This document shows positions 2,343 through 36,256 of a stretch of DNA of 64,000 nt, in pieces (the stretch's first letter is position 1; each line of letters begins with the position of its first letter). The translations under genes were made by a program, and so were the position numbers. Origin of the DNA: a virus. The stretch lies in the IMG/VR virus record IMGVR_UViG_3300022602_000038, positions 64,001-128,000 of that record. The stretch is one strand, 5' to 3'. The notes beneath the pieces are model-generated. The model did not search any database and had not been told where the DNA came from. It worked only from the letters and a program-made list of their open reading frames with translations.

Positions 2343-3287
2343 ATGATTATTAACGGTCAAATACGTGGTATATATAACATTCCTCAGAGCGGTGGCGGTG
2401 GTACTGCTAAAGGTATATGGGATAATATGGATGTGTATAGAGATAAGAGAAAGGGTATGTGGCCGACACCTTCAGTAACACAAACTGTTACACCTACTGT
2501 AACCCCTCCTCCATATGCTGCTATATATTATGATTCAGGTACATTTACTGTACCAAGTGGTGTTTATTCAATAACATCAGTGGCTGTTGGTGGTGGTGGT
2601 GGTGGTGGAGTTAGAGGTGGTGGTGGAGGTGCAGGCGCGTATAGTCTCGCATATGCTGGTTACTATGGTGTAAACCCTGGTCAAAATATTTCAATAGTAG
2701 TAGGTGGTGGTGGCGGAGGTGCTTTCGTTGCCGGAGATGGAGATAACCACGCTGGTCCAGGTGGTCAGTCTCATGTAAACAATTGGCACACTAGTGGTAA
2801 TGGTGGTGGTCATGGTTATGATGGTGCAAATGGATTTGGTTCAGGTAACGGTGGAGGCGGTGCACATGGCGGTGGAGGCGGTGCAGGTGGGTATTTCGGT
2901 CAAGGCGGACATGGCGGAGACGGTGGAGATGGAGACGGGGTAGGCAATACTGGCGCTGCTGGTTATGACGGAGCGGCTGGTGGCGGTGGCGGCGGTGGTT
3001 CTTCTTATCAAGGTGGTGGTGGTGGTGGTGGTGTAGGCTTAGATGGACATTTAACAGACAGTAATTACACCGGTGGAGCACCTGGCGGTCAAGGCAATGC
3101 TCAACAAGGCTTTGGCGGTGGTGGAGGTGGCAACGGTTCAGACTATGGTAAAGACTGCTGTCCAGGTGGTGGAGGTTCAGGCGGTACAAACGATAGTTTT
3201 ACCGGCGGTGGCGGTGGTGGAGGTGGCGGAGTAAGATTGTTATTTAACTCTTCCGGTAGACCAGCCTATCCAAACGCAAACCCTTAA
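2343..3287 (+). CDS. Glycine-rich tail adhesin-like protein, copy 1
   Basis: 'SGTFTVPSGVYSITSVAVGGGGGG...GGGGVRL' Gly-rich domain; short Pro/Thr linker. Confidence 0.7.
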   Translation: MIINGQIRGIYNIPQSGGGGTAKGIWDNMDVYRDKRKGMWPTPSVTQTVTPTVTPPPYAAIYYDSGTFTVPSGVYSITSVAVGGGGGGGVRGGGGGAGAYSLAYAGYYGVNPGQNISIVVGGGGGGAFVAGDGDNHAGPGGQSHVNNWHTSGNGGGHGYDGANGFGSGNGGGGAHGGGGGAGGYFGQGGHGGDGGDGDGVGNTGAAGYDGAAGGGGGGGSSYQGGGGGGGVGLDGHLTDSNYTGGAPGGQGNAQQGFGGGGGGNGSDYGKDCCPGGGGSGGTNDSFTGGGGGGGGGVRLLFNSSGRPAYPNANP

Positions 3288-3341: not shown

Positions 3342-4067
3342 ATGGCAACATTTGCATTAGTAGATGATCACAATATAGTACGACAAGTGGTTAAAGTACC
3401 GGACCATCAACAACATAGAGGTCATGAATTTTTGTCTCAAGATCTAGGTATTGTTGGAGGTAAATGGATACAAACTAGTTTTAACACCCACGACGGTAAA
3501 CATTTCTCCTCAACAATTAAAGATCCAAGAACTGGTAATTTTATACCAGATGGTGGTACTCCGATACGGCATACATACGCTTCAATAGGTTTTCATTACG
3601 ATCCAGTTCTAGACATATTTTACCCACCTAAACCCTACCCCTCCTGGGTAAGAAGAGCAAATGGTACTGGTTGGGAACCACCAATACCTATGCCTACCCC
3701 GTCGATAAAGACAACAGGTATTGATCCAGGATGGCTTTGGTCTGAAACAGATCAAACATGGTATAGAGGTACATGGCAAGGTTACTTACATCCATCTCGT
3801 CATCCTATAAAGATGGCACCTACACCGTCTATTACTCCTTCTATAGGTTCCACACCAACTCCAACTTCTTCAAACAACGTAATACCAACACCGTCTCCAA
3901 GTCCTACTATATCTCTTACTCCATCATTCGGTACAACCCCTACTCCTACCCCAACACCATCTTTTACACCTTTTAGTACTCCAACTCCAACTACTACGAT
4001 TGGATTTACGCCAACCCCTAGTGTTACTTTTAGCCCAACACCAACCCCTAGCTTTCCATCGTCTTAA
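3342..4067 (+). CDS. Tail-fibre-associated conserved phage protein with C-terminal Pro/Thr/Ser mucin-like tail
   Basis: 'MATFALVD..NIV', 'WIQTSFN', 'YDP..D.FYPPKPYPSW' motifs typical of proteins next to Gly-rich tail genes; last ~80 aa are PTPS/PTPT repeats. Confidence 0.6.
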   Translation: MATFALVDDHNIVRQVVKVPDHQQHRGHEFLSQDLGIVGGKWIQTSFNTHDGKHFSSTIKDPRTGNFIPDGGTPIRHTYASIGFHYDPVLDIFYPPKPYPSWVRRANGTGWEPPIPMPTPSIKTTGIDPGWLWSETDQTWYRGTWQGYLHPSRHPIKMAPTPSITPSIGSTPTPTSSNNVIPTPSPSPTISLTPSFGTTPTPTPTPSFTPFSTPTPTTTIGFTPTPSVTFSPTPTPSFPSS

Positions 4068-4087: not shown

Positions 4088-5059
4088 ATGCTTAAATACG
4101 GTTCATTTATAGGCAGTACATTTACACCAGTTCTATCAACTGGTGCTGCTGCAGGGTTGTTTTCATTAACTGACGTTTTTTTAAACCGCTCTCAAGGTAT
4201 ATGGCCTAGCCCAACAAAAACAGGTACACCAACTCCAACTGTTACACCAACAACCACACCTTCACCTACTAAAACCCCGCCTGCTTTTTCACAAGTATTT
4301 TATGATTCAGGTACATTTACTGTACCAAGTGGTGTTTATTCAATAACATCAGTGGCTGTTGGTGGTGGTGGTGGTGGTGGAGTTAGAGGTGGTGGTGGAG
4401 GTGCAGGCGCGTATAGTCTCGCATATGCTGGTTACTATGGTGTAAACCCTGGTCAAAATATTTCAATAGTAGTAGGTGGTGGTGGCGGAGGTGCTTTCGT
4501 TGCCGGAGATGGAGATAACCACGCTGGTCCAGGTGGTCAGTCTCATGTAAACAATTGGCACACTAGTGGTAATGGTGGTGGTCATGGTTATGATGGTGCA
4601 AATGGATTTGGTTCAGGTAACGGTGGAGGCGGTGCACATGGCGGTGGAGGCGGTGCAGGTGGGTATTTCGGTCAAGGCGGACATGGCGGAGACGGTGGAG
4701 ATGGAGACGGGGTAGGCAATACTGGCGCTGCTGGTTATGACGGAGCGGCTGGTGGCGGCGGCGGTGGTGGTTCTCCTTATCAAGGCGGCGGCGGTGGTGG
4801 TGGTGTAGGCTTAGATGGACATTTAACAGACAGTAATTACACCGGTGGAGCACCTGGCGGTCAAGGCAATGCTCAACAAGGCTTTGGCGGTGGTGGAGGT
4901 GGCAACGGTTCAGACTACGGTAAAGACTGCTGTCCAGGTGGTGGAGGTTCAGGCGGTTCAAACGATAGTTTTACCGGCGGTGGCGGTGGTGGAGGTGGCG
5001 GAGTAAGATTGTTATTTAATACTACTGGTAGACCAGCCTATCCAAACGCAAACCCTTAA
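4088..5059 (+). CDS. Glycine-rich tail adhesin-like protein, copy 2
   Basis: Same Gly-rich domain as 2343-3287 with a different N-terminus and a PT linker. Confidence 0.7.
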   Translation: MLKYGSFIGSTFTPVLSTGAAAGLFSLTDVFLNRSQGIWPSPTKTGTPTPTVTPTTTPSPTKTPPAFSQVFYDSGTFTVPSGVYSITSVAVGGGGGGGVRGGGGGAGAYSLAYAGYYGVNPGQNISIVVGGGGGGAFVAGDGDNHAGPGGQSHVNNWHTSGNGGGHGYDGANGFGSGNGGGGAHGGGGGAGGYFGQGGHGGDGGDGDGVGNTGAAGYDGAAGGGGGGGSPYQGGGGGGGVGLDGHLTDSNYTGGAPGGQGNAQQGFGGGGGGNGSDYGKDCCPGGGGSGGSNDSFTGGGGGGGGGVRLLFNTTGRPAYPNANP

Positions 5060-6537: not shown

Positions 6538-8070
6538 ATGAAGAGCGTGAACGTTTTACAAATTAAGTACGAATTATCTTATATTACAGAATCTATCAAT
6601 GATTTGTACTTTAATGCATTTGCAGAAGCCTTAGTACCAGGTGTAACACCTGCTGCTCCAGCCCCTGCTGCTGCACCAGCCCCTGCAGCACCGGTTACAA
6701 CAACTCAAACCCCTGCAACAAGTGCTACAACTCAACCAACTGCACCTGCTGCTGGTACAGCTCCTCAACCAGCTCAAGCTACTCCTGCTCAACAACAACA
6801 GCAACAAACCCCTCAAACCCCTCAAGATTTAGAAAAAGCAGTAGAAAAGGATAAAACTCAATTACCTGGCTTAATACAAGCAATTGTTTCTAAACTCAAC
6901 CCTCAAGATAAAGTTGAATTACAGAAAATCGTAGCTCAAAATAACGTGCAAGCTTTAAATGCGTTTATTGCAAAACACGCCCCTGCTACAAAAACTCAAG
7001 AAGAAGCTTACTTAAGCGAACACGTAAAAACGATTCTTAAATATGTAGATACACTTTCTAATAAAGAAGAAGTACGTAAAGGTATACAAGAGTTTGTTGA
7101 ATCAAATGGCAATATAGAGGTACTTAAAAAATATGATCCAAACTTTGAAGAGAATCTTTTAGGTTTATACAGAGAAGGTTATATTAATGAAGGCATATTA
7201 GGAGCTATTGGTTCCGGTTTAAAGAGCGTATGGCAAGGTATTAAGAATTTAGGAAAAGAGGCTCTGCCAGTTTTAGGTAAATACGGTCCTTGGGCTGCAT
7301 TAGGTGCATTAGCTGGTGGACCACTTGGTGCTATGGCAATGCCATTAATTGCAAAAGCTCTCGGTGGTAGCGGTGGTACTGAAGCTAAACCAGGAGAAGA
7401 AAAAGAAAAACCTAAACCAATTGGTAAGATGACTACGGCTGATCTTTCTACTGTAAGTGATGAAAAGTATATTTCATTACCTTTAGTTGCAGCTAAAAAT
7501 AAATTTAAACTTATCGATCTTACTCCAGAGGAAGAAAAAGAAATTGAAAGCGGTGCAATACTTAACGTAACTGATAACAATCAAAATACAGTACAGTTTA
7601 CGTATAAAAACGGTTTATTGTCAGGTATTAAGGTTTCTGGTAATGACACTGCACCAACAGCACCAGCACCTAGCCTAACACCAGCAGTAGCAACTCCTAC
7701 TCCATCTCCTACACCTCCGGTTTTAAAGCCGAAACCATCAGTTAAACCAAAGCCTCGCGCTCCAAAAGTAGCGGTTAAACCAAAACCTACAGCACCAAAG
7801 CCAGTAGCACCAAAAGCTCCTAAAGCAAAACCTGGGGTTATAAATACACCAAGTAAACAATTTACCCCAGCACAAAAACAAAACGCTAAAAAAGAACTAA
7901 GACAGTTAACTCGTATACCAAAAGCAAGAAGAACAACTGATCAAGATAAAAGAATACAAGATTTAAATAAAATTGTAGTAGGGGAAACATTTGTAAGTCT
8001 AGCTGATAAAGTTTTAAACAATCTACGTAACAGTTCTAGTGCTACTCCAATTGAAAGAGCTAATGGATAA
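6538..8070 (+). CDS. Low-complexity Pro/Ala/Thr/Lys-rich protein, possible head-internal or ejected protein
   Basis: PAAPAP, TPTPSPT and KPKP tracts, a central hydrophobic Gly/Ala segment, several (I/L)xE sites. Confidence 0.5.
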   Translation: MKSVNVLQIKYELSYITESINDLYFNAFAEALVPGVTPAAPAPAAAPAPAAPVTTTQTPATSATTQPTAPAAGTAPQPAQATPAQQQQQQTPQTPQDLEKAVEKDKTQLPGLIQAIVSKLNPQDKVELQKIVAQNNVQALNAFIAKHAPATKTQEEAYLSEHVKTILKYVDTLSNKEEVRKGIQEFVESNGNIEVLKKYDPNFEENLLGLYREGYINEGILGAIGSGLKSVWQGIKNLGKEALPVLGKYGPWAALGALAGGPLGAMAMPLIAKALGGSGGTEAKPGEEKEKPKPIGKMTTADLSTVSDEKYISLPLVAAKNKFKLIDLTPEEEKEIESGAILNVTDNNQNTVQFTYKNGLLSGIKVSGNDTAPTAPAPSLTPAVATPTPSPTPPVLKPKPSVKPKPRAPKVAVKPKPTAPKPVAPKAPKAKPGVINTPSKQFTPAQKQNAKKELRQLTRIPKARRTTDQDKRIQDLNKIVVGETFVSLADKVLNNLRNSSSATPIERANG

Positions 8071-11669: not shown

Positions 11670-11690
11670 TTAAAGTACTTTAATTATACT

Positions 11691-11718
11691 AAAAGCCCTG
11701 GTAAAACAGGGCTTTTTT
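11691..11718 (+). terminator. Rho-independent terminator
   Basis: aaaagccctg-gtaaaa-cagggctttttt. Confidence 0.85.
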
Positions 11719-11743
11719 ATTGTTCGTACATTAAGTATTAATA

Positions 11744-12457: not shown

Positions 12458-12459
12458 TT

Positions 12460-13059: not shown

Positions 13060-13063
13060 CATT

Positions 13064-14796: not shown

Positions 14797-14826
14797 AAAC
14801 CAGATTCTTTTAGTAAATCTATATAA

Positions 14827-22345: not shown

Positions 22346-24346
22346 ATGCAAACTTTTAATTCAACTTATTTAGGTATAGTAGTACAGAACAACGACCCGG
22401 AGTATCGTGGTAGAGTAAAAGTATGGGTACCGCATATAAACGGGTCTGTATATAACAAATGGGCTCAATTAGGTGCAGATCGTAGTTTTAAATTTCCTGG
22501 TACTAATATAAGTTCAGATTTAAATTTAGTTTTAGATACAGTTAAAGATCAATTACCTTGGGCAGAACAATGTGCTCCAATAGTAGGTGAAAGTGCAACT
22601 GGTTACTATAACGCTTACACTACACAAGCTACTACATCAGATGCTGCTTTTTCATATAGTTTATCAGGTACAAATTTTTCAAATAATTACACTCAATTTA
22701 ATTTAAATAGTGAAGGTATAGGCGAAAAACCTGGTTTTGTATATGAAAAATACGGCACTAAATTAACCGATGCTTTTACAGATACTACTGCGAATAATAC
22801 AAGCATGGTTAATCAAAACGGTGCACAGTATAGGCCGTCTACGTATTCTAATGCTGCTAAAGGTATATTTGCTATACCTAAAGTAGGAGCTCATGTATGG
22901 GTGTTCTTTAGAGACGGCATGCCGGTATACCCTGTCTATATGGGCACTATTTCAAGTCAAGATGATTTTGCAAGTATATTTAACACTCAAGATGGCGCTT
23001 ATCAAGACTACCCTCAAACGTTTGAAAATGTAAACAAAAACCTTAGACAAACTGAAGATGTTAATACCCATACATATCGTAATAAAATGGTTATTAACCA
23101 AAGAGGTGCAGCTATAGAAATTATCAATACTACTGATAGAGAACAGTTTAAAGTGACTCACTTTGCGGGTGGTTTTCTGGAATTTAACAATAAATTTAAC
23201 TCTTTATTTAGTCCTAAAAATTTACAACTTCTTACTCTGAGAGACAAATTTGAAACGATAAGAGGTCATAATAATTTATTTGTAGATAGAAATTTCGATA
23301 ATACTGTACAGGGAGATTACTTGATTAAAACAGGTAATTTAAATACTACCGCGATGCAGAACTGGGTTACTGCTTATACAGCTATAGCCAACTTATTAGC
23401 ATTACCTGAAGGCTCTGCTGGTAAAGATAGTTTAGCCGCAACAATAACAGCTCAAGCTGCTGCCTTAGCTGCTGCTGAAGCAGAACTAGGATTCGGTGGT
23501 AATTATGTTGAAACAGTAACTAAGCATAAATTCCTTAATGTAGGTTTAGTGTTTAATACATTTGCAAGTACTAGGTATAACTTAACTAACAAAACTGTTT
23601 CTCAATACAGAAACGCTACAGGTTCTGGTACAACTTTAACTACAACTACAATACCGGCAATAGAGTATACATTTATAGATGATATGCCTGGTGGTAATCT
23701 AACTCAAACCATAGGTAATAAATACAGTTTATTAGTTGGTTCAGGTGGGGTTGATATTAAAACAACCGGCCCTGTGAACATTGGCGGCACTATAATGGCT
23801 GTAGCAGGTAAACAAGTTAATATAGCATCTACTGATGATACTAATATTGATGGTGGTACTAACTTATCTGTTATAGCAACTTTAATGACTATAAGAACTC
23901 GTAACAGACAACAAGTAGTTATTGATGATAATTTAGGTATTAGTAAAAATGTTATTATTGGAGGTGGTGCTTATGCAAACGGGGAAATGTTCGTACAACA
24001 TATAACAGCTCCTGTTGAATTTCAATTAACAGAAGCTACAAAAATAAGCGATACAACTTATACTATTACAGGGGCTACTATTACAGGTTCTGGTACAGGC
24101 CCTGGTGGATCTTACGTATCTGGAAATACTATTAATATCTCTGGTGGTACATTAGCAATTAATCAAACCCATCAACATTATTATAAGAATATACCATTAA
24201 CAATGCTTGCTAGTAATTCTGCAGTTAGTACAGCCGCAGAAGCTCTTAATGCGGGTAGTTCAGCTTCTACTGCTACAGCGGTATCTGATGGGTATAAATC
24301 CGATCCAAGCGGTCGTACTCCTCCTTCTGATCCACGTACAAATTAA
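22346..24346 (+). CDS. Baseplate central spike (gp5/VgrG-like)
   Basis: OB-fold 'GIVVQNNDPEYRGRVKV' and 'IPKVGAHVWVFF.DG....PV', beta-helix repeats, 'THQH' HxH tip motif; no lysozyme motif seen. Confidence 0.85.
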   Translation: MQTFNSTYLGIVVQNNDPEYRGRVKVWVPHINGSVYNKWAQLGADRSFKFPGTNISSDLNLVLDTVKDQLPWAEQCAPIVGESATGYYNAYTTQATTSDAAFSYSLSGTNFSNNYTQFNLNSEGIGEKPGFVYEKYGTKLTDAFTDTTANNTSMVNQNGAQYRPSTYSNAAKGIFAIPKVGAHVWVFFRDGMPVYPVYMGTISSQDDFASIFNTQDGAYQDYPQTFENVNKNLRQTEDVNTHTYRNKMVINQRGAAIEIINTTDREQFKVTHFAGGFLEFNNKFNSLFSPKNLQLLTLRDKFETIRGHNNLFVDRNFDNTVQGDYLIKTGNLNTTAMQNWVTAYTAIANLLALPEGSAGKDSLAATITAQAAALAAAEAELGFGGNYVETVTKHKFLNVGLVFNTFASTRYNLTNKTVSQYRNATGSGTTLTTTTIPAIEYTFIDDMPGGNLTQTIGNKYSLLVGSGGVDIKTTGPVNIGGTIMAVAGKQVNIASTDDTNIDGGTNLSVIATLMTIRTRNRQQVVIDDNLGISKNVIIGGGAYANGEMFVQHITAPVEFQLTEATKISDTTYTITGATITGSGTGPGGSYVSGNTINISGGTLAINQTHQHYYKNIPLTMLASNSAVSTAAEALNAGSSASTATAVSDGYKSDPSGRTPPSDPRTN

Positions 24347-24391
24347 GTGGAAAAATATTGACTTTTAAGTAAGTTCTTTTATTATATTTTT

Positions 24392-25660
24392 ATGGAAGAA
24401 ACTATATTTGTACAAATAGCAGCTTATAGGGATTCAGAATTAATACCTACAGTAAAAAATTGCTTAGCTCAAGCTGAGCACCCTGAACGTTTACATATAT
24501 CGATCGGGTGGCAACATAGTCCAGATGAAAATGTAGATGAAATTGCTAATCTTGAAAACGTAACTATTGTATCATACCCGCACACAGTTGCAAAAGGACC
24601 GTGCTGGATAAGAAGAGCAATACAAGAGGAATATAAGGACGAAACGTACACCCTACAATTAGATTCTCATCACCGTTTTATAAAAAATTGGGATACGGAA
24701 ATTATTGCAATGTATAAAGGTTTAATTGCAGATGGTGTTAAAAAACCTATTATATCTTCTTATTTGCCAAGTTATGAACCTAAAAATGACCCAGCAAACC
24801 GAACAATAGATATTTGGCAAGTTAATTATGATAGGTTTATACCTGAGGGTCCTATATTTCAACGTCCTTCAACTATTAAAAATTGGGAGACATTAACCAA
24901 ACCAGTACCAGCGCGTACTATTTCTGCTCACTTTTTATTTACACGCGGACAGTGGATTAAAGAAGTGCCATATGATAGTCAATTATATTTTCATGGAGAA
25001 GAAATTACATTAGCTGTAAGATCTTACACACACGGTTACGACTTGTTTCATCCTCATAAAATTATTGCATGGCATCAATATACTAGAGAAGGTCAAAGAA
25101 AGCATTGGGATGATAGTTCAATGTGGAACAATCTCAACATGTATAGTTATGCAAGAGTTAAAATGTTATTAGGTATTGACGGGGTAGATAATAAATTAGC
25201 AAAATTCGAAGAAACAAATACTGGTCTTGGTACGGAAAGAACACTCTCTCAATTTGAAAGATATGCTGGTGTAGAATTTAAAACCCGTAAATTACATAAA
25301 GATACAGTTGCTGAAATTTTACCTCCTATAAATTTTCAAGACGAAGAAACGTTTCAAAAAAACTTATGCTCTGTCTTTAAACATTGTTTAGATGTGTTTA
25401 AACCTGAAGTGCCTTTAAGAGATTATACTTTTTGGGCTATATCATTTCAAGACAGACTCGGTAATGATTTATACCGACAAGATGCTGATTTAGCTGAAAT
25501 TGAACGCGCTATGTTTGAAAATCCAAACGACAAGTTTGCACATATATGGAGAGAGTTCAGTACAAATGAAAGACCTTATAAATGGGTAGTATGGCCATAT
25601 AGTAAATCTAAAGATTGGTTAACTGACAGGATAGAAACAGTTATTAACTATGGTAATTAA
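24392..25660 (+). CDS. GT60-type (Skp1/polypeptide alpha-GlcNAc transferase-like) glycosyltransferase
   Basis: 'TIFVQIAAYRD', 'GPCW.R', 'LQLDSHHRF..NWD', 'FHGEEI...RSYTHGYD'. Confidence 0.85.
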   Translation: MEETIFVQIAAYRDSELIPTVKNCLAQAEHPERLHISIGWQHSPDENVDEIANLENVTIVSYPHTVAKGPCWIRRAIQEEYKDETYTLQLDSHHRFIKNWDTEIIAMYKGLIADGVKKPIISSYLPSYEPKNDPANRTIDIWQVNYDRFIPEGPIFQRPSTIKNWETLTKPVPARTISAHFLFTRGQWIKEVPYDSQLYFHGEEITLAVRSYTHGYDLFHPHKIIAWHQYTREGQRKHWDDSSMWNNLNMYSYARVKMLLGIDGVDNKLAKFEETNTGLGTERTLSQFERYAGVEFKTRKLHKDTVAEILPPINFQDEETFQKNLCSVFKHCLDVFKPEVPLRDYTFWAISFQDRLGNDLYRQDADLAEIERAMFENPNDKFAHIWREFSTNERPYKWVVWPYSKSKDWLTDRIETVINYGN

Positions 25661-25678
25661 TTTTAAAATCTATACATT

Positions 25679-26941
25679 ATGAACAATACAACTACAACTG
25701 ATAACACTATCTTTATACAGATAGCATCTTACAGAGATTCAGAATTAGTACCTACTATAAAGAATTGTATACAGAACTCAAACGCACCAGAAAACTTAAG
25801 GTTTTGTATAGCATGGCAACACGGTCCTGAAGAAAATATCGATGAATTAAAACAATATTCTAATATTAATATTATAGATTTAGATTACATTCACACCAAA
25901 GGTGTATGCTGGGCTCGTAACAAAATACAACAATTATATGCAGGTTACCCTACAAAATACACGCTACAATTAGATTCCCATCATCGCTTTGTAAAAGGTT
26001 GGGATACTCTTTTGATAGGTATGGTTGAACAATTACAGGCAAAAGGATATAAAAAACCTTTACTTACTGCCTATTTACCTAGCTATAACCCTTCAAATGA
26101 TCCTGCTGAAAGAGCAATGTACCCCACTAGAATGGATTTTGATAGGTTTATACCTGAAGGAGCTGTTTTTTTCAGGCCCGCTGTAATTGAAAATTGGGAA
26201 AATTTAACTGAACCTGTACCTGCACGTTGGTATTCTGCGCATTTTTGCTTTACATTGGGGGAATTTTGTACAGAAGTTCAACATGACCCAGAGTATTTGT
26301 TCCATGGAGAAGAAATTAGTATAGCAGCAAGAGCGTATACCCACGGTTACGACTTGTTTCACCCTCATAAAATTATTGCATGGCATGAGTATAGCCGTAG
26401 CTATAGACCTAAACAATGGGATGATAGTCCGACATGGTTTATAGAAAATAGAATTTCTCACTTACGTAACCGTAAGTTTTTTAGTATGGACGGAGAAGTA
26501 AGAGATATAAGCTTTGGTAATTATGATTTCGGTACTGTAAGAACATTACACGACTATGAACAATACGCAGGTATTGATTTTAAAAAGCGTGGGGTACAAG
26601 AATATACAATTAAAAATAAACCAGCCCCTAACCCTAAGGTAGAGGATTGGGATAAATCTATCATTTCTCTTTTTAGACATTGTATTGATATACCTTTTGA
26701 AGCTTTACCAGAACAAGACTATGATTTTTGGTGTATAGCCTTTTCAGATAAAAACGGTCAAGAGATTTATAGAGAAGATGCAGATATAGATGAAATTGAA
26801 AGTATGCGTAAAGATCCTGACATGTATTATAAAATATGGAGACAGTTCATTACCCCTAATCTTCCTGTAAAATGGATAGTCTGGCCTCACACAAAAAGTA
26901 AAGGGTGGGGAGATCCTATTATACAGAATTTAATTCCTTAA
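25679..26941 (+). CDS. Second GT60-type glycosyltransferase (paralog)
   Basis: Same motifs as 24392-25660, colinear over the full length. Confidence 0.85.
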   Translation: MNNTTTTDNTIFIQIASYRDSELVPTIKNCIQNSNAPENLRFCIAWQHGPEENIDELKQYSNINIIDLDYIHTKGVCWARNKIQQLYAGYPTKYTLQLDSHHRFVKGWDTLLIGMVEQLQAKGYKKPLLTAYLPSYNPSNDPAERAMYPTRMDFDRFIPEGAVFFRPAVIENWENLTEPVPARWYSAHFCFTLGEFCTEVQHDPEYLFHGEEISIAARAYTHGYDLFHPHKIIAWHEYSRSYRPKQWDDSPTWFIENRISHLRNRKFFSMDGEVRDISFGNYDFGTVRTLHDYEQYAGIDFKKRGVQEYTIKNKPAPNPKVEDWDKSIISLFRHCIDIPFEALPEQDYDFWCIAFSDKNGQEIYREDADIDEIESMRKDPDMYYKIWRQFITPNLPVKWIVWPHTKSKGWGDPIIQNLIP

Positions 26942-26944
26942 TAA

Positions 26945-27841
26945 ATGTCAAAAACATTATTTGTTACTAGCTATTACGGTAAACTATGGAGTACGAAATT
27001 CGGTGGTAGATCTGGTAGAGAAGAAAACTACTTAAGATCTTTTGTTTCTCTAGTAAGAATGCCTGCTGATTTTGTAATTTATACTTCTGAAGAAGAAAAA
27101 CCTATAATTGAAAAATTTATAAGTGAGCATATTGTAACTACTAATAGAATTACAATTATTGTTTATAATTTAGAAAATTTCATACATCACGTAAAGATAA
27201 ACAGTATACTTGGCGGGTTTAATAATCTTCAACCGGATAGATGCTTTGAGATACAGTACGGTAAATTGTATTGGTTGGAAAATCATTTAAATGAAGATTA
27301 CGAAACAATTTACTGGGTTGACATAGGACTCTCTCATATAGGTTTATGGCCACAAAAATATACATTCGGACATGACTGGTATACTAAGCAGTTTTATTTC
27401 AATATATTTAACGGAAACTTACTAAACAACCTTAACGATAGTGTAATAAAACAAGATAAAATCTTTACTATTGCTTTAGATCAGACTATAAATAAGGGAT
27501 ACGGCAACGCTGCTGCAAAATACTACACTCATAATAATTCTCATAATATAGGTAAAATACATGTTGTAGGTGGACTATTTGGCGGTACTAAAAGTAGAGT
27601 TAAAGATTTAATTACTAAATTTAAAGAGAAAACTATACAAGTATTATCTGATGATGCTTTATATACAGAAGAACAAATACTATCTATACTTGTTACTAAC
27701 GAGCCTGAACGTTATATAATAGAATTATTTGAAAACTGGTATCATGAAGACAGTAAAGGTTTTGAACACACTCTAACAAAATATAAAAAATCTTTTTATC
27801 AAATTTTTGAAAAATATAATAATGTTTCAAATGCAAAATAA
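26945..27841 (+). CDS. HtrL/WlaTC-like glycosyltransferase
   Basis: 'YWVDIG', 'GGLFGG', 'TEEQIL'. Confidence 0.7.
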   Translation: MSKTLFVTSYYGKLWSTKFGGRSGREENYLRSFVSLVRMPADFVIYTSEEEKPIIEKFISEHIVTTNRITIIVYNLENFIHHVKINSILGGFNNLQPDRCFEIQYGKLYWLENHLNEDYETIYWVDIGLSHIGLWPQKYTFGHDWYTKQFYFNIFNGNLLNNLNDSVIKQDKIFTIALDQTINKGYGNAAAKYYTHNNSHNIGKIHVVGGLFGGTKSRVKDLITKFKEKTIQVLSDDALYTEEQILSILVTNEPERYIIELFENWYHEDSKGFEHTLTKYKKSFYQIFEKYNNVSNAK

Positions 27842-29435
27842 AGAATTTATTGTTTCTATTTATGGCTCTCATAACGCTGCTATAGCTTTTTATTATAAGG
27901 GTAAGATCGACGTTTATGAAGTAGAAAGATATGTAGGGTATAAAAACTCCGGTCTTTCTCAGTACAAGTTTATTTGGCCTACGGATATTTTTATAGATTT
28001 AATTATTAAAGACTATAAACTAAGAAATAATATCAATCAAATACCAGATGTATTATTGTGGAGTAGAACAGACTGTAACCATAATAACACTAAATACATG
28101 TTTCATGAAAATATTGAAACAAAAGAGTGTATACCCGGAGCATTACATCATATGGCGCATGCGAGCGGAACCTTTTACCAATCTACATTTAATAAAGCTT
28201 TAGTTATTTCTTTTGATGGTGGTGGGGAAGATGGGTTTTTTAATATCTACTTTGCAGATAGAGAAACAGGTTGCAGTCTTATAAGCAAAATAGATATAGA
28301 TTTAGGTTTTGCATATATGATTTTAGCACATTACTTAAAAGATATAAACCGAGAAAATTCATTAAGCGATGGCAATTTAATTTACTCAGGAAAATTAATG
28401 GGCTTGACCGGATACGGCAAGTTAAATCCTGATTGGCTACCAGCGTTTAAACAATTTTATTACAGCAAACCTGACGGTAATAATTATACGGAAAAAATTA
28501 AAATCCTAAAGGATGCAATCGGTGTTGATTTTAATGATATATATAGACTGAGTGGTTATACAGCATACAACATAGCAGCTACACATCAACAAGCATTTGA
28601 AGATGTGTTTTTTGAAAAGGTAGATTCAATTATAAATGATTATCCAGATTTACCTATTTGTGTAACAGGTGGTTGTGCACTTAATGTATTGTTAAATACA
28701 AATATAAAGAAAAAATATAACAGGCAAATGTTTGTAGCTTCTAACTCAAATGATTGTGGACAAGCTGCAGGTATGTTATTAGAGTATTTAAAACCACCCA
28801 CCCAAATAGATTTATCTAGAACAGGTACCCCTATATTAGATTATGGTTCTATAGGAGAATACATGTATGAATGTAGTAATAAATGTAAAATTAGCAAAGT
28901 TACAAACAAGGAAGTAATTGAATTACTACAAAAAGGTAAAATAATTGGAGTACTAAGAGGTTTAAGTGAACATGGACCAAGAGCATTAGGTCACAGAAGT
29001 ATTATTTGCGATCCAGGTAAAGAAAACATGAAAGATGTACTGAATCAGAAAGTAAAAAATAGAGAATGGTATAGACCGTTTGCGCCTATTGCATTAGTAG
29101 AAACAGCAAACAATTATTTTGATATAACTGAATATTCACCATATATGTCTTTTGCTTTTGATGTAAGAGAAGAATGGAAAAGCAAATTAAAATCTGTTAC
29201 TCATATAGACGGAACAGCTCGAGTACAAACACTTAAGAGAGAAGATGATGCATGGCTGTATGATTTAATTAAAGATTTTGGTGCAAAATCCGGGTATGAA
29301 GTAATACTAAATACAAGCTTTAATGTAAACGGTAAACCTATATTAACAACTGTTAAAGACGCTTTTAAAGTATTTAATACTACTAAACTTGATTGTCTTA
29401 TTATTGAAGATAATTTAATTGTAAAGAACCAATGA
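27807..29435 (+). CDS. O-carbamoyltransferase (NodU/CmcH/TobZ family); real start probably a slightly downstream ATG
   Basis: 'HH.AHA', 'DGGGE', 'GKLMGL..YG', 'GGCALN', 'E.GPRALG.RS', 'K.REWYRPFAP', 'HIDGTARVQT', 'LNTSFN..GKP'. Confidence 0.95.
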   Translation: MKNIIMFQMQNKEFIVSIYGSHNAAIAFYYKGKIDVYEVERYVGYKNSGLSQYKFIWPTDIFIDLIIKDYKLRNNINQIPDVLLWSRTDCNHNNTKYMFHENIETKECIPGALHHMAHASGTFYQSTFNKALVISFDGGGEDGFFNIYFADRETGCSLISKIDIDLGFAYMILAHYLKDINRENSLSDGNLIYSGKLMGLTGYGKLNPDWLPAFKQFYYSKPDGNNYTEKIKILKDAIGVDFNDIYRLSGYTAYNIAATHQQAFEDVFFEKVDSIINDYPDLPICVTGGCALNVLLNTNIKKKYNRQMFVASNSNDCGQAAGMLLEYLKPPTQIDLSRTGTPILDYGSIGEYMYECSNKCKISKVTNKEVIELLQKGKIIGVLRGLSEHGPRALGHRSIICDPGKENMKDVLNQKVKNREWYRPFAPIALVETANNYFDITEYSPYMSFAFDVREEWKSKLKSVTHIDGTARVQTLKREDDAWLYDLIKDFGAKSGYEVILNTSFNVNGKPILTTVKDAFKVFNTTKLDCLIIEDNLIVKNQ

Positions 29436-31213
29436 ACAAAAGTCAAAGAATGTACACTAATGATCCAATAACGGTAAACACGCCTACCGTTGCGGGTACA
29501 AAAACTGTAAAAGTAGATGTTACTAATACTACCAGTGAAAATTTAACTGTAGTTACTGGTATTTGGGATCTTAAGAGAGACCAAGCTGGAGACGGATTTA
29601 AAAGACCATTTGAACATTATATAACTAATTTTATATCTCTTTTAAAGACAAATGTAAAAATGTATATTTACATTGAAAAGAAATACGAAAGTCTTGTATG
29701 GAAATATAGAACCCCGCATAATACTTCAGTTCGTATTAAAGAAGTAGAAGAATTTAAAACAAACTTTAGTTTTTATGAAGATGTACAAAAAATACGTCTA
29801 AGTGAAAAATGGAGAAAACAAGCAGATTGGTTAGGTCAAAGCACACAAGCTACATTAGAGTATTATAACCCTATGGTTATGTCAAAAATGTTTATGTTGC
29901 ATGACGCTGTTTGTGCAAATCCGTTTAATACTGATTACTATATATGGTTAGATGGGGGTATTACTAACACGGTACATGAAGGTTATTTTACACATGATAA
30001 AATACTAGATAAATTAGAACCTTGCTTAAGAAGTTTTTTATTCGTTTCTTTTCCTTACACTGGCAATACTGAGATACACGGGTTTGAAAGAACTGGTATG
30101 AACACTTTTGCTAAAGCAAAATCCGTTGATTATGTATGTAGAGGTGGCTTGTTTGGTGGCCATAAAGATATAATTCGAAAGGCTAATAATACATATTATC
30201 ATTTGCTTAATGCAACTTTGAAGCAAGGATACATGGGCACAGAAGAAAGTATTTTTACTATCATGGCTTATTTACAGCCAGATATATACAATCGTTTTGT
30301 AATACAAGATAACGGGTTGATAAATTATTTTGCAGAAGCACTTAAAAACAATGATGTACAATTGGTAGTATCTGCTAAACCTAAAGTTAAACCCGTATTT
30401 TTAGATAAAATAAAAACCGCATTATACGTTATTACATTTAACTCTCCAAAACAGTTTGAAACGTTAGTTGAGAGTTATCTTAAACAACCTAATTTTATTA
30501 GAGGTACTGTAAATTATCTACTAGATAACAGTACTGATGCTAGCACTACCCCTGCTTATGCAGCTCTATGTGAAAAGTACGGCTTTGAGCATATAAAGAA
30601 AGATAACTTAGGTATATGTGGAGGTAGACAGTTCATAGCAGAGCATTTTGATAAAACAGAATGGGATTATTACATTTTTCTTGAAGATGATATGCTTTTA
30701 AAGAACTCCGATGCAAAGCCTTGTGATAACGGTTTTGTAAGTTATGTACCAGATTTATATGTAAAAGCTATTAAAATAATTGCTGGTTATGATTATGATT
30801 TTTTAAAATTTAGTTATACTGAATTTTACGGAAACAATGGCACCCAATGGGCATGGTATAATGTACCTCAAGAAGTAAGAGAAAAAAACTGGCCAGATCA
30901 ATGTACATTACCACCTGAAGGTACAGATCCAAATTCGCCTCGTACACTATTTAAGAATATAAACAGTATGGAAGGGTTAGCTTGGGCAGATGGAGAAATC
31001 TATTACTGTAATTGGCCTCAGATTGTATCTAAAAAAGGTAATAAAAAAATGTTTTTAGAAACTAACTGGACGTATTACTATGAACAGACATGGATGTCTC
31101 ATATGTACCAACTTACATTAAAAAATGAATTAAAAGGTGCAGTATTATTAGCTTCCCTTATTAATCATGATAGGTTTGAACATTATGACGGCTCTTTAAG
31201 AAAAGAAACGTAA
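29432..31213 (+). CDS. Two-domain glycosyltransferase (HtrL-like plus GT-A/GT2-like)
   Basis: N-half 'WLDGG', 'GGLFGG', 'GTEES'; C-half 'DNS', 'N.GICGGR', 'FLEDD'. Confidence 0.75.
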   Translation: MNKSQRMYTNDPITVNTPTVAGTKTVKVDVTNTTSENLTVVTGIWDLKRDQAGDGFKRPFEHYITNFISLLKTNVKMYIYIEKKYESLVWKYRTPHNTSVRIKEVEEFKTNFSFYEDVQKIRLSEKWRKQADWLGQSTQATLEYYNPMVMSKMFMLHDAVCANPFNTDYYIWLDGGITNTVHEGYFTHDKILDKLEPCLRSFLFVSFPYTGNTEIHGFERTGMNTFAKAKSVDYVCRGGLFGGHKDIIRKANNTYYHLLNATLKQGYMGTEESIFTIMAYLQPDIYNRFVIQDNGLINYFAEALKNNDVQLVVSAKPKVKPVFLDKIKTALYVITFNSPKQFETLVESYLKQPNFIRGTVNYLLDNSTDASTTPAYAALCEKYGFEHIKKDNLGICGGRQFIAEHFDKTEWDYYIFLEDDMLLKNSDAKPCDNGFVSYVPDLYVKAIKIIAGYDYDFLKFSYTEFYGNNGTQWAWYNVPQEVREKNWPDQCTLPPEGTDPNSPRTLFKNINSMEGLAWADGEIYYCNWPQIVSKKGNKKMFLETNWTYYYEQTWMSHMYQLTLKNELKGAVLLASLINHDRFEHYDGSLRKET

Positions 31214-31214: not shown

Positions 31215-31244
31215 AAAAAAAGCCTCGCATTAGCGAGGCTTTTT
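31215..31244. terminator. Bidirectional terminator at the convergence of the + and - gene blocks
   Basis: aaaaaaagcctcgc-atta-gcgaggcttttt. Confidence 0.9.
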
Positions 31245-31370: not shown

Positions 31371-31850
31371 TTAACTCCTTGGTAAATTGTTATTTGTTGT
31401 TACAACGTAAACAGGCTCTTTAGTTTTAATACTAACATTATACGGTTTAAAGAACTTATTGCCTACATTTGCAATTGCTTGCCCGATAGAAGATACAGGA
31501 TATTTTTGTCCTTTCTTAGAAGCATTAAAGTTGTATGCACCTTTCTTAATAGACTCTAATACTTCAGTAACATCATCATCTTCTGGTATTTGTACAACCC
31601 ACCCTACTAAGTCTTTAGTAATAATTCCCTCTTTATCAGATACAAGAATTACGTATTGTTTCTTTACTTTAGGAGCACCATCATCTTCTGTTTCTGGTGT
31701 TTCTTTAGTTGTTTCTGGGGATGTTTCATCTATTGTTAATGTAGCTTCATCTAAAGCTGCTAACACTTTTTTAACAATAGCTTCGTCTCGAACAATTTGT
31801 TCAAGAGCCTGTTTAACGGTATCAAGTTGGACGTACTCTTCTTTGCTCAT
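31371..31850 (-). CDS. Hypothetical protein
   Basis: 159 aa; preceded by TTGATT-N16-TATTAT. Confidence 0.7.
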   Translation of the reverse strand: MSKEEYVQLDTVKQALEQIVRDEAIVKKVLAALDEATLTIDETSPETTKETPETEDDGAPKVKKQYVILVSDKEGIITKDLVGWVVQIPEDDDVTEVLESIKKGAYNFNASKKGQKYPVSSIGQAIANVGNKFFKPYNVSIKTKEPVYVVTTNNNLPRS

Positions 31851-33149: not shown

Positions 33150-33224
33150 TGGTACCACCAAGGGGAATCGAACCCCTATTATCGAGATGAAAACCCGGTG
33201 TCCTAACCGTTAGACGATGGCGGC
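33150..33224 (-). tRNA. tRNA-Glu (UUC), CCA encoded
   Basis: GCCGCCATCGTCTAACGGTTAGGACACCGGGTTTTCATCTCGATAATAGGGGTTCGATTCCCCTTGGTGGTACCA. Confidence 0.92.
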
Positions 33225-33237: not shown

Positions 33238-34458
33238 TTACACATTTACAAATTTAGTCAAATCTATTTGATAACCTTTTATATATTCATCAATTACAAA
33301 ATCATTCATTTTCCAAAAAGATGTGGTTGGTTTACCGTTTATAACAGTATTAACAGCCCAACTTTTAAATCTATTACAGTTATTTAGTCTGTTTAAAGCA
33401 GCTGGTTTAGCATATTCCCAAAAAGAACTTTTAATATTATTAGGACCTGCGTAGTTGATTGCTAATAACGATTGTATTGCTTCAATATTGTTTACATACC
33501 ATTCGTTTATTGCTAATGTAAGTCTACTATAATCTTCACTCCAATTTAATCTTAATATATAATCAGTCACGTTTTGCATTACATTTGTATAAAAATGTAA
33601 AGGTAAGGACATATGTGGCTCAAAAAAATGAAGTTTATTACCTAAATACAATATTCTATTATCCATTGCATTTTTTTTATAATATTGTTCCCAAGAAAAC
33701 CGTCTTAACTTAGAAGCATCAATATTTTTTATTTTTGAAAAATGTTCAATTGCTTCTTCTTCGCTTGTGATATTATTATTATAAAGATATCCCCAAGTTG
33801 TTCTATGTTGTAATGGTATACTAAACATCCACCCGTTTTTATGTACGTAAGCTCCTGTAAAGTTAAATTTATCTAAATTTTCTTTAATTTCAGGATAAAG
33901 AATTACAGAATTTACAACTTTAAAATCAGGAAACAGATATTCTTTAGAATTTAACTCTTCAGGGGTTGGAGTGCCCATACAATCTATTACAAAATCGTAG
34001 TTATATTTATCTTTAACACCAAAAACTGTCGCCGATCTTTCATCTTGCTTTATATCAATAACAGTGTCATGTATTTCTTTAAAATTATTATATAAAGCAG
34101 TTAATCTTTTTAAAGTAAATTTACTAAAAGTGTCGCTATTAAAATTTATACCAGGTGCACTACGTACAATAAAATTTTTGCCATTTGCTTCTTCCCAAAA
34201 ATATCTAACACTCCATTTAGTCGTACAATCTAATTCCGCACCTTCAGTTACTATATCAAAATTTAAAGCATGATAAAGCAGCTCGTAAATTAAAGATGTA
34301 CTTGTCTCTCCAACTTGTACTGGTGTAATGTTAGGATCGTGTATACAATGCACCTCTAAATTTTTTACTAATTTTTGTTTGGATTTTTTTAAAACTGCAA
34401 AAATTTGCAATAAAGCTATAGCACTTGCAGTGCCGTTACCGATTATACAAATTTTCAT
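33238..34458 (-). CDS. Flavin-dependent halogenase-like protein (short type)
   Basis: 'IIGNGTAS', 'VGETS', 'GWMFSIPL', 'GN...FFEP'. Confidence 0.75.
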   Translation of the reverse strand: MKICIIGNGTASAIALLQIFAVLKKSKQKLVKNLEVHCIHDPNITPVQVGETSTSLIYELLYHALNFDIVTEGAELDCTTKWSVRYFWEEANGKNFIVRSAPGINFNSDTFSKFTLKRLTALYNNFKEIHDTVIDIKQDERSATVFGVKDKYNYDFVIDCMGTPTPEELNSKEYLFPDFKVVNSVILYPEIKENLDKFNFTGAYVHKNGWMFSIPLQHRTTWGYLYNNNITSEEEAIEHFSKIKNIDASKLRRFSWEQYYKKNAMDNRILYLGNKLHFFEPHMSLPLHFYTNVMQNVTDYILRLNWSEDYSRLTLAINEWYVNNIEAIQSLLAINYAGPNNIKSSFWEYAKPAALNRLNNCNRFKSWAVNTVINGKPTTSFWKMNDFVIDEYIKGYQIDLTKFVNV

Positions 34459-34459
34459 T

Positions 34460-35644
34460 TTAACAAAAGTCTTTTGGTTCTAGTTTGTACCCATCAAAAT
34501 AATCTTTTAATATGCTTTCTGGGTGAGACCAATAAGAGCTTACTATACCGTCCTTATTTTCCAAACACCATAATTTAAAAATTATAGAGCTATTTAATCT
34601 TTTTCGAGATTTTTCTAATGCATAATCCCAAAAAGGGCTTTTGATATTGTTAAGACCTGCGTAATTAATAGCAACCATATCTTGTAATTCTTCTACACTA
34701 CGCATGTGAAATTGATTCACCTTTAAAGAAATAGACTTAGGGTCAGGGTTATTAAAAACCTCTCCAGTAAAAAACATTAACACGTTACCATAATAATGCA
34801 GTGGCATTGCCTGGTGCGGTTCAAAAAAATACAACCTATTACCCAAGTATAATATTCTATTATCCATTGCAAGCTTTTTATAGTATTGTTTCCAAGTGAG
34901 TTTTCTTAACTTAGAAGTATCAATATCTCTTATTTCTGAAAAATGTTTAATTGCTTCTTCTTCACTTGTAATGGTATTGTTATAAAGATACCCCCAAGTT
35001 TTTCTAGTAGTCAAAGGAATACCAAACATCCATCCGTTTTTATGTACATATGCGGAAGTGTATAGCTCGTCTGTTTTTATAGGCTCTGGGTATGCTATTA
35101 CTGAATTTACAGAAACCCAATCTGGTGCTTTATAATCTTTATTTGTTTCCACGTTAGGTGGTGTACCTCTACAATCTATTATATAATCATATTTATATGT
35201 ATTTTTTTCGCAAGATACATATACATTAGAACCATCTTGAGTAATATTTGTTACGTTATCTTTTATCTTTACAAAGTTATTGAATTTTTTTTCAACTTCA
35301 TCTATTACATAAAAACTGAATTTTTCACTATTTATATGAAATCCAGGCTCATTATGGCGTACTGTAAAATTATTACCATTTGCCTCTTCCCAGAAATACT
35401 TTGCACACCATTTAAGTGTACCATCAAACTTTGGTGCATCTCTTAATATGTCATAGTCTAAAACATTAAAGAGCGCTTTATTAACTAATCTTGAAGTGCT
35501 TTCTCCAACTTGAGTGGTAGAAATGTTAGGGTTATATATACAATGAATTTCAGCGTTTTTTAGTTTATTGAGTTTAATTTTTTCAAACAACCACAATAAA
35601 GAAAAAGCCCCTGCTGTACCTGCTCCTATTACACATATTCTCAT
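34460..35644 (-). CDS. Flavin-dependent halogenase-like protein (short type, paralog)
   Basis: 'GAGTAG', 'VGEST', 'GWMFGIPL', 'GNRLYFFEP'. Confidence 0.8.
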   Translation of the reverse strand: MRICVIGAGTAGAFSLLWLFEKIKLNKLKNAEIHCIYNPNISTTQVGESTSRLVNKALFNVLDYDILRDAPKFDGTLKWCAKYFWEEANGNNFTVRHNEPGFHINSEKFSFYVIDEVEKKFNNFVKIKDNVTNITQDGSNVYVSCEKNTYKYDYIIDCRGTPPNVETNKDYKAPDWVSVNSVIAYPEPIKTDELYTSAYVHKNGWMFGIPLTTRKTWGYLYNNTITSEEEAIKHFSEIRDIDTSKLRKLTWKQYYKKLAMDNRILYLGNRLYFFEPHQAMPLHYYGNVLMFFTGEVFNNPDPKSISLKVNQFHMRSVEELQDMVAINYAGLNNIKSPFWDYALEKSRKRLNSSIIFKLWCLENKDGIVSSYWSHPESILKDYFDGYKLEPKDFC

Positions 35645-36063: not shown

Positions 36064-36139
<76 letters not shown>

Positions 36140-36171: not shown

Positions 36172-36256
36172 TGGTGGGTACACTTGGACTCGAACCAAGG
36201 AAGCTGTGAAGCAGCAGATTTACAGTCTGCCGTAATTGCCGCTATACGATATACCC
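36172..36256 (-). tRNA. tRNA-Tyr (GUA), long variable arm, CCA encoded
   Basis: GGGTATATCGTATAGCGGCAATTACGGCAGACTGTAAATCTGCTGCTTCACAGCTTCCTTGGTTCGAGTCCAAGTGTACCCACCA. Confidence 0.92.

Follow-up and report, generated by a model that had tools for sequence, protein, structure and literature searches.

A GT60-led glycosyltransferase island in an uncultured contractile-tailed phage and its possible role in mucin-type O-glycosylation of virion proteins

The characterised members of glycosyltransferase family GT60 are polypeptide GlcNAc-transferases: Gnt1 of Dictyostelium and Toxoplasma adds alpha-GlcNAc to a hydroxyproline of Skp1, and Dictyostelium Gnt2 and the OGNT enzymes of Trypanosoma cruzi act on Thr/Ser residues of mucin-like repeats. 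Another route to O-glycosylated repeats is found in the serine-rich-repeat adhesins of Gram-positive bacteria, where O-GlcNAc addition is started in the cytoplasm by GtfA/GtfB, and the chain is extended by strain-variable enzymes encoded in the same locus. Both the GT60 family as such and the glycosylation of virion proteins by enzymes of mycobacteriophages are established; to our knowledge, glycosylation of phage-particle proteins has been demonstrated so far only in a few mycobacteriophages. Here we describe a GT60-led island of genes that follows the tail genes of an uncultured phage, at positions 24392-31213 of a 64,000-nucleotide stretch of DNA (the window) that corresponds to bases 64001-128000 of the 140,720-base IMG/VR virus record IMGVR_UViG_3300022602_000038 (CheckV completeness approx. 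65%). The reading that we favour, with a probability of roughly 0.6, is that the island encodes a late, cytoplasmic O-glycosylation of Pro/Thr tracts in virion proteins, which would be started by GT60 enzymes, extended by transferases of GT-A fold, and carbamoylated; it is based on sequence comparisons and predicted structures.

In the mycobacteriophage system, glycosyltransferases, in some phages together with methyltransferases, reportedly modify terminal extensions of the phages' own structural proteins (work by Freeman et al. 2023, Cell Host Microbe). The phages concerned are actinobacterial siphoviruses, and the targets are reported to be the C-termini of capsid and tail-tube subunits. 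A cluster F1 relative has an HtrL/YibB protein annotated among its glycosyltransferase genes. In the literature searched, we came across no account of phage-encoded GT60 (PF11397), of the module presented here or of its link to Pro/Thr repeats, the nearest being a remark on the Xanthomonas jumbo phage XacN1 that is discussed below.

The island and the enzymes it encodes

The island is one same-strand block of five genes (24392-31213, +) that runs from the tail spike gene to a strong terminator-like hairpin. The first-pass annotation had called two GT60 enzymes, two HtrL-like domains, one GT-A domain and a carbamoyltransferase after the spike; all of these calls proved real and correctly placed, and only the order of the genes departs from the one it gave. 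The first two genes encode GT60-A (24392..25660, +; 422 residues), the proposed initiator, and its paralogue GT60-B (25679..26941, +; 420 residues), which are 48% identical. They match PF11397 ('GlcNAc', equivalent to CAZy GT60) with 240 and 238.4 bits, respectively, against a cut-off of 21 (E 7e-71 and 2e-70), a result repeated on the genome, and GT60-A also matches phrog_24687 (E 1e-138). Sequence-based comparison with PDB entries yielded nothing meaningful either for GT60-B or for the 593-residue protein described below, and therefore a comparison of folds was used. The top 29 PDB matches of the GT60-B model, which was built on 32 homologues and has a predicted local distance difference test (pLDDT) score of 92.7, are all catalytic domains of polypeptide GalNAc-transferases (Z 19.4-22.7), with approx. 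275 residues aligned at a root mean square deviation of approx. 3.5 Å; other GT-A enzymes reach a Z of 16.7 at most. Residues D99-S-H101, E211, E212 and H236 of GT60-B are invariant in the 32 sequences, H236 being a presumptive metal ligand, and the D-S-H and HPHKIIAWH motifs are kept in GT60-A. The catalytic domain of GT60-B is followed by a beta-rich domain of approx. 115 residues. The pathway had been described at first as eukaryote-like, which is fair with regard to the fold; however, the family is also widespread in bacteria.

The third gene (26945..27841, +) encodes a single-domain, HtrL-like protein of GT-A fold (298 residues), a proposed extender, for which no Pfam or PHROG match was found. 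Its link to HtrL comes solely from a profile-profile comparison of its family with the HtrL-like domain of the family of the 593-residue protein (hhalign probability 100%, E 3e-40), and the WxDxG and GGxFGG motifs are common to both. This latter protein, the product of the fifth gene (29432..31213, +), is a two-domain glycosyltransferase, with an HtrL-like domain at residues approx. 22-302, where HtrL_YibB (PF09612) covers residues 37-287 with 43.8 bits versus a cut-off of 24.1 (E 3e-11), and a C-terminal GT-A domain at approx. 319-590 that carries the invariant residues E418-D419-D420. According to its model (pLDDT 88), the HtrL-like half has a GT6-like fold, closest to the retaining ABO/alpha-3-GalT enzymes at the middling score of Z approx. 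13.5, and the second half resembles B4GALNT1, POMGNT1 and GnT-I (Z 14-15.6); as a whole, the model resembles the dual-GT-A enzymes LH3, K4CP (chondroitin polymerase), LARGE1 and Mimivirus R699.

Between these two genes lies that of a NodU/TobZ-type O-carbamoyltransferase (27807..29435, +; 542 residues), whose true start may be a codon located a few codons inside the listed TTG. Both expected domains were found, i.e., the Kae1-like N-terminal domain (Carbam_trans_N, PF02543, 71 bits, E 1e-19) and the YrdC-like C-terminal domain (Carbam_trans_C, PF16861, 217 bits, E 2e-64); the protein also matches phrog_1601 (E 3e-117) and the PDB entries of TobZ, GdmN and NovN-type enzymes (E 2e-45 to 1e-39). 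It carries the metal-binding HxxxH motif of the Kae1-like domain in the context ...GALHHMAHASG..., and its HHMAHA stretch we take, by analogy with TobZ, to be the iron site.

All five proteins lack signal peptides and membrane segments, and no 19-residue window in them holds more than 12 hydrophobic residues. As predicted from sequences and models, the block encodes five soluble sugar-transferase domains plus one enzyme that adds carbamoyl groups. Flippases, polymerases, and transferases linked to polyprenyl-phosphate or bactoprenol, which would be expected of Gtr-type or O-antigen seroconversion systems, are families that were not met among the island genes sampled. These properties have to be weighed against the possibility that the island remodels a glycan of the host surface, be it the lipopolysaccharide core, the O-antigen, the capsule or a surface glycoprotein, either blocking competitors or freeing the progeny from debris. 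Several facts agree with such an interpretation: HtrL was named from a gene in the lipopolysaccharide core cluster of E. coli and occurs in outer-core loci of Acinetobacter, NodU-type carbamoyltransferases act on oligosaccharides, and the GT60 family is also present in bacterial chromosomes. Clusters of glycosyltransferase genes in cyanophages and jumbo phages are, moreover, usually read as devices for the modification of surface polysaccharides (PMC7824862, PMC12801897). Nevertheless, a pathway of this kind would here be devoid of any membrane-embedded or lipid-carrier enzyme, with all five proteins soluble, and it would be led by a constant enzyme with the family and fold of polypeptide transferases; the block is also co-oriented with the late structural genes, and the association with Pro/Thr repeats described in the next section would be left unexplained. 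For these reasons, a role in host-glycan remodelling is considered unlikely.

The identity of the lead enzyme also bears on the idea that the enzymes glycosylate the DNA of the phage at modified bases, allowing it to escape restriction. Phage clusters that add mono- to tri-saccharides to 5-hydroxymethylcytosine (5hmC) or 5-hydroxycytosine are established (bioRxiv 10.1101/2023.12.21.572611; PMC13326640), and the modules of XacN1 and of the Stenotrophomonas jumbo phage RAS14 that are described below adjoin genes for DNA polymerase and RNase H. However, the known enzymes are either JGT-like GT-A proteins with the signature R..DDD..EDY/F or GT-B proteins, encoded beside a thymidylate-synthase-like or TET-like gene (bioRxiv 10.1101/2023.12.21.572611), whereas the lead enzyme here is a GT60 with a DxH motif and, in this lineage, the block sits in the tail module. 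Neither PF00303 nor PF12851 was matched in the 140-kb record, which is approx. 65% complete, the TET profile having matched no control genome either. Taken together, these results make glycosylation of DNA a highly improbable function for the island.

Association of GT60 with Pro/Thr repeats in phages and bacteria

Homologues of GT60 number more than 7,500 in a public protein set, and the family is present in at least 118 loci in IMG/VR, 80 of which were fetched and compared (56 after de-duplication). In nearly all of these 80 unrelated loci, the GT60 gene opens a same-strand island located behind genes for tail, baseplate or fibre proteins. HtrL-like or two-domain proteins adjoin it in 53 of the 80 loci, a carbamoyltransferase accompanies it in 9-10, and a conserved pair of proteins of unknown function is encoded downstream in 18. 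The remaining downstream genes are variable and include GT2, GT25, GT10-like and PLOD-type glycosyltransferases, DUF5672 proteins, and methyltransferases of the FkbM and CmcI types, so that sugar O-methyltransferase families are also represented in the islands of other phages. A constant first enzyme, accompanied by extenders and decorators that change from locus to locus, is what an initiator acting on one class of acceptor would give.

Proteins with Pro/Thr repeats, defined as those having at least 17 P/T/S and at least five P within some 25-residue window, are encoded directly upstream of GT60 in 13 of the 56 de-duplicated loci (23%) and by the next gene upstream in 7/53 (13%), compared with 19/763 (2.5%) at positions outside -3 to 0. 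Many of these upstream proteins, of 300-2000 residues, contain long (TPTxTP)n tracts. The association was also detected in the reverse direction: PF11397 was found in 10 of 68 searchable IMG/VR records picked solely by the presence of DNA coding for (Thr-Pro)6, and in none of 49 control records, all of at least 12 kb, that were picked by an arbitrary 14-mer (Fisher's exact p = 0.005; 10/55 versus 0/49, p = 0.0014, when records are length-matched at 12 kb or more). Measured in these two ways, the co-occurrence of GT60 and Pro/Thr-rich proteins that the first-pass annotation had put forward as a check amounts to 23% versus 2.5% and to 10/68 versus 0/49.

A similar picture was obtained within the lineage of this phage, of which 36 related IMG/VR loci were found with the spike protein. 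In all ten of the closer relatives searched (spike 62-76% identical), a GT60-led island lies between the spike gene and the counterpart of the gene at 31371-31850 (-), which encodes a conserved protein of 159-165 residues and unknown function; this gene borders the insertion site on its far side in every relative, whether or not GT60 is present. In the twelve more distant relatives (spike 43-47% identical), the spike gene is followed directly by this counterpart, and no PF11397 match was found on their records. The islands of the closer relatives differ from one another: some consist of two GT60 genes, a carbamoyltransferase and an HtrL-like protein, others of GT60 with a GT2 and an HtrL-like protein, or of GT60 with GT25-type genes, among other combinations. 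A quick tree groups GT60-A with the first GT60 of two of these relatives (G130 and G137) and places GT60-A and GT60-B in different sub-lineages, the second copies of other relatives forming a separate, divergent clade; because of this arrangement, the islands are seen as mosaics. Such swapping of chain-building genes between close relatives suggests selection on the surface of the particle. Long Thr-Pro (TP) tracts (score of at least 20) are present in 4/9 of the GT60-carrying records versus 0/12 of those devoid of it, and a Pro/Ala/Thr/Gln-rich gene occupies the slot before the tail tube gene (6538-8070 in the window) in 8/8 GT60-carrying relatives and is absent in 6/7 of those without GT60, a contrast that is confounded by lineage.

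The same gene set was also found in cultured phages. The jumbo phages XacN1 and RAS14 carry the same four gene families in one block, with 27-47% identity. For XacN1 (ORF334-ORF330), the identities are 47% for GT60, 45% for the carbamoyltransferase, 29% for the HtrL-like protein and 44% for the two-domain transferase; homologues of the 298-residue HtrL-like protein are 27-29% identical in the two modules. Both modules are near genes for giant proteins with TP tracts, and that of XacN1 is located where the baseplate block ends, in convergent orientation to the baseplate wedge genes and to the nearby gene of a TP-tract protein of 3313 residues. Staining of XacN1 virions with periodic acid-Schiff is reported to reveal two or more bands, for which the authors suggested that phage transferases are responsible (Yoshikawa et al. 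2018, PMC5852040); that work recognises neither the module nor its GT60 family, nor the Pro/Thr link (PMC5852040).

With each prokaryotic species represented by a single genome, the GT60 family was found in at least 274 stretches. The trio formed by GT60, a carbamoyltransferase and an HtrL/GT protein was found in Jiulongibacter sediminis JN14-9 and in genomes of Arcticibacterium and Saprospiraceae, and it is back-to-back with a gene for a protein that starts with an Arg-Arg (Tat-like) signal and continues with approx. 150 residues of (TPTPTPS)n; the trio with its mucin-like neighbour spans 6968-13172 of locus L431 in J. sediminis JN14-9 and 6675-12501 of locus L465 in an Arcticibacterium metagenome-assembled genome. 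A carbamoyltransferase adjoins GT60 in several loci of Bacteroidota. Within three genes of GT60, a Pro/Thr-repeat protein is encoded in 20 of 57 bacterial loci, with a peak directly upstream, although this count used simple calls of open reading frames and may include false positives in genomes of high G+C content. The nearest cellular homologues of the phage GT60 (approx. 57%) belong to Bacteroidota and the window has a low G+C content of approx. 34%, and because of these two features the sequence hints at a host in that phylum. With its trio, J. sediminis JN14-9 would offer a model of this chemistry in a bacterium that has been cultured.

The proteins that accompany GT60 in bacteria have the look of exported proteins and not of parts of a virion, and several GT60 loci have no Pro/Thr protein nearby. 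Both facts would agree with a target outside the particle, either a cytoplasmic protein of the phage or of the host, as Skp1 is for Gnt1, or a secreted or small-molecule glycoconjugate. Gnt1 itself is a GT60 that modifies a single regulatory protein of the cytoplasm, the carbamoyltransferase relatives of solved structure act on antibiotics, and the phage genome has five 2-oxoglutarate (2OG) oxygenases of the prolyl-hydroxylase type. On the other hand, five transferase domains and a fast turnover of the extenders are more in line with a product that diversifies at an exposed surface than with a regulatory switch, most loci have the block where the tail module ends, and stained bands have been reported in the virions of XacN1; hence, we regard a non-virion target as improbable.

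Candidate acceptors and the late gene block

The first-pass annotation pointed to Pro/Thr linkers in four late proteins, encoded at 2343-3287, 3342-4067, 4088-5059 and 6538-8070, and all four are indeed present, though short. The best candidate acceptor is the C-terminal tail of the 3342-4067 product, 83 residues that include 24 T, 16 S and 23 P (3816..4064, +). This protein belongs to the phrog_7759 family, whose 125-residue profile covers only its residues 1-143. Its homologues in phages devoid of GT60 have 92-110 residues and no tail (92 in a relative, and 110 in a 39.5-kb phage that is 98% complete), and the other homologues in a set of 5.8 billion proteins have 136-167; since these homologues are short, the Pro/Thr tail appears to be an addition in this phage, as judged from the few sequences at hand: the N-terminal domain gave five IMG/VR loci, and the large protein set contributed four more homologues.

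The genes at 2343-3287 and 4088-5059, which flank that of the Pro/Thr-tailed protein, encode paralogues in which most of the sequence is nearly identical; each has a very Gly-rich body behind a Thr/Pro linker. The linkers are further candidate acceptors: one of 31 residues near the N-terminus of the 4088-5059 product (4202..4294, +) and one of 17 residues in the 2343-3287 product (2463..2513, +). Both paralogues match phrog_4474, of unknown function, weakly, and a search of IMG/VR for relatives of the 4088-5059 protein gave none; the long antisense open reading frames within the two genes are probably artefacts of composition. The fourth candidate is a protein rich in Pro, Ala, Thr and Gln whose gene (6538..8070, +) directly precedes that of the tail tube; besides Pro/Ala/Thr-rich stretches, the protein has a 24-residue TP tract (7669-7740) and then a PxK-rich stretch. 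Its C-terminal part contains KPKPSVKPKPRAPKVAVKPKPTAPKPVAPKAPKAKP, a stretch that may resemble the Pro-Ala-Pro-Lys repeats hydroxylated by a chlorovirus prolyl 4-hydroxylase.

The fibre protein (2-1936, +) had also been put forward as a substrate, on account of about 100 Ser-Gly units. These are in reality a collagen-like G-X-Ser repeat: the protein matches the collagen triple-helix repeat (PF01391, E 3e-45) and tail-fibre PHROGs, and Ser occupies position Y in 91 of its 111 G-X-Y triplets. Long collagen-like proteins are equally present in relatives with and without GT60, and the proposal that the fibre is an acceptor was accordingly abandoned as unsupported.

The 140-kb record has five genes for 2OG-Fe(II) oxygenases of the prolyl 4-hydroxylase (P4H) type (PF13640/PF13759), one in the window at 41512-42135 (+) and four at G000:C1 2841-3887, 15072-15659, 45862-46443 and 46462-47073; none of them is linked to the island. 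A contribution of these enzymes to the pathway had been considered from the start, and it is partly in keeping with the fact that BLAST relatives occur only among the GT60-carrying relatives (3/9 versus 0/12 of those lacking GT60); nevertheless, this difference is weak and confounded by lineage, and the genes stand apart from the island. An acceptor hydroxyproline, as for Gnt1, is possible. In two relatives (G132 and G137), a 2OG oxygenase homologue adjoins collagen-like genes with GPP triplets, which suggests that these oxygenases could hydroxylate prolines of collagen-like fibres.

The candidate acceptors and the island are part of a single long block of late genes on the + strand, from position 2 to 31213. 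Besides the genes already mentioned, it includes those for the tail tube (8074-8658) and the sheath (8716-11097), T4-type baseplate proteins (13858-15636) and a tape-measure-like protein (15676-18381), all on the + strand. A nucleotidyltransferase-domain protein (5414-6526, +; PF01909, phrog_36119) is also encoded in this tail block, and relatives that carry GT60, as well as those that lack it, keep its gene immediately ahead of that for the tube. The structural genes end, in front of the island, with that of the tail spike or baseplate hub (22346..24346, +; PF04717 Phage_base_V, E 7e-11; phrog_430, baseplate hub). The 45-base gap between this gene and GT60-A contains a promoter-like site, TTGACT-16-TATTAT (24358..24385, +), which matches 10 of 12 consensus positions but is weak evidence, sigma-70-like sites in the region not exceeding the expectation from shuffled sequence. 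The intrinsic-terminator-like hairpin (31217..31244, +), with a stem of 12 pairs, six of them G-C, followed by a T-run, starts four bases past the last stop codon and closes the block; the genes past it are mostly on the opposite strand. When the whole block was compared with cultured phages at the nucleotide level, the matches were confined to short pieces, 66-78% identical; this uncultured, contractile-tailed phage has, accordingly, no close cultured relative.

Beyond the island, two tandem genes on the - strand (33238-35644; 406 and 394 residues) match the family of flavin-dependent tryptophan halogenases (PF04820, both with E 3e-25). This pair is adjoined by a gene for tRNA-Glu, one of three tRNA genes on the - strand (Glu-TTC, 33150-33224; Met-CAT, 36064-36139; Tyr-GTA, 36172-36256).

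A working model and its relation to known systems

The following model is our inference as to the acceptor and donor sugar, the sequence of steps, the target of carbamoylation and the benefit to the phage. One or both of the soluble GT60 enzymes would move a first sugar from a UDP-sugar onto hydroxyls in Pro/Thr-rich tracts; by analogy with all the characterised GT60 enzymes, this sugar would be alpha-GlcNAc, and the acceptor hydroxyls would be those of Thr or Ser, hydroxyproline being less likely. The substrates would be virion or virion-associated proteins, in the first place the 83-residue tail of the 3342-4067 product, followed by the linkers of the Gly-rich proteins and the 6538-8070 product. 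The HtrL-like protein and the two-domain transferase, which together provide three further GT-A catalytic domains, would then extend the chain, and the TobZ/NodU-type enzyme, as its co-location suggests, would carbamoylate a hydroxyl of a sugar using carbamoyl phosphate and ATP. The phage would obtain linkers on the fibre-like parts of its particle that are protease-resistant, hydrated and antigenically variable, in agreement with the rapid swapping of extenders.

The idea that the phage builds an O-glycan on proteins of its own particle, already present in the first-pass annotation, is supported in part by the family, fold and solubility of the enzymes, by the position of the island in the tail block, by the association with Pro/Thr repeats and by the stained bands of XacN1; the part of it that concerned the fibre is not. 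Several observations weigh against it. HtrL and NodU-type enzymes are best known from the chemistry of lipopolysaccharides and lipo-oligosaccharides. The Pro/Thr tracts of the window are short and located 16-22 kb upstream of the enzymes, unlike in other genomes, where the two are neighbours, and among the GT60-carrying records several are devoid of TP tracts. The positional enrichment may in part be a by-product, since Pro/Thr linkers are common in fibres, where the island sits, and the GT60-positive records of the reverse test are mostly fragments of phages of approx. 200-300 kb, so that genome size is a confounding factor. Within the lineage, the contrasts amount to one or two evolutionary events on incomplete records, and a short TP tract occurs in one relative (G125) whose record, of 21 kb, is devoid of GT60. 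As for XacN1, its module borders replication genes on one side, and the stained bands were neither identified nor tied to a gene (PMC5852040).

A broader and more tentative proposal, to which we give somewhat less than even odds, is that large aquatic phages, Bacteroidota and other bacteria share a prokaryotic mucin-type O-glycosylation, in which a soluble, cytoplasmic GT60 would act on (Thr-Pro)n, and fast-evolving extenders, methyltransferases and carbamoyltransferases would complete the glycan. If so, the fibre linkers and further virion parts of the phages would be coated with variable glycans, bacteria would gain exported mucin-like proteins, and the GT60 initiators of protists and the GT27 initiators of animals would acquire a large and so far unrecognised sister group in prokaryotes and viruses, with a bearing on the origin of the enzymes that initiate O-GlcNAc and O-GalNAc addition in eukaryotes. 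Should the module work as suggested, the abundance of homologues of its lead enzyme (more than 7,500) would make glycosylation of virions common among environmental phages, possibly in response to pressures on the surface such as protease resistance, adhesion, or evasion of recognition by hosts or grazers. Its soluble enzymes would also be on offer for the glyco-engineering of Pro/Thr linkers. Since the same gene set has cultured carriers, the phage XacN1 and the bacterium J. sediminis JN14-9, the hypothesis is directly testable there.

Compared with the GT60 enzymes of protists, those of the island show a strong profile match, a GT-A fold nearest to GT27 and the DxH motif; they are soluble, as is Gnt1, and have genomic partners with Thr/Pro repeats, like the substrates of Gnt2 and OGNT. 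In contrast, the phage and bacterial enzymes have an extra beta-rich C-terminal domain of approx. 115 residues, and their genes head operons that also encode HtrL-like and GT2/GT25-type transferases, carbamoyltransferases or methyltransferases. The island has its transferase genes beside structural genes, as expected of a system of the mycobacteriophage type, and glycans on the virion proteins of this phage are a prediction, the nearest related evidence being the Schiff-stained bands of XacN1; in the literature consulted on mycobacteriophage glycosylation, no report was found that initiation there is by GT60, that Pro/Thr repeats serve as acceptors or that a carbamoyltransferase takes part. 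The module of XacN1 differs from the present one in having a single GT60 and a longer carbamoyltransferase (765 residues), and in being convergent to the baseplate genes.

The GtfA/GtfB system resembles the proposed pathway in that its acceptor is a low-complexity, Ser/Thr-rich repeat and in that initiation is combined with variable extending transferases; however, its initiator is a pair of GT-B enzymes, its products are exported by an accessory Sec pathway, and it is not encoded by phages. Finally, the giant viruses that glycosylate their own proteins, i.e., the chlorovirus PBCV-1 with its capsid glycans and Mimivirus with its collagen-type glycosylation (e.g., R699 and L230), have eukaryotic hosts and use other enzyme families and other acceptors (Asn in PBCV-1, and hydroxylysine in collagen-like proteins); nevertheless, they have in common with this phage a virus-encoded and soluble machinery, and the two-domain transferase of the island shares with LH3 and Mimivirus R699 the layout of two GT-A domains in one protein.

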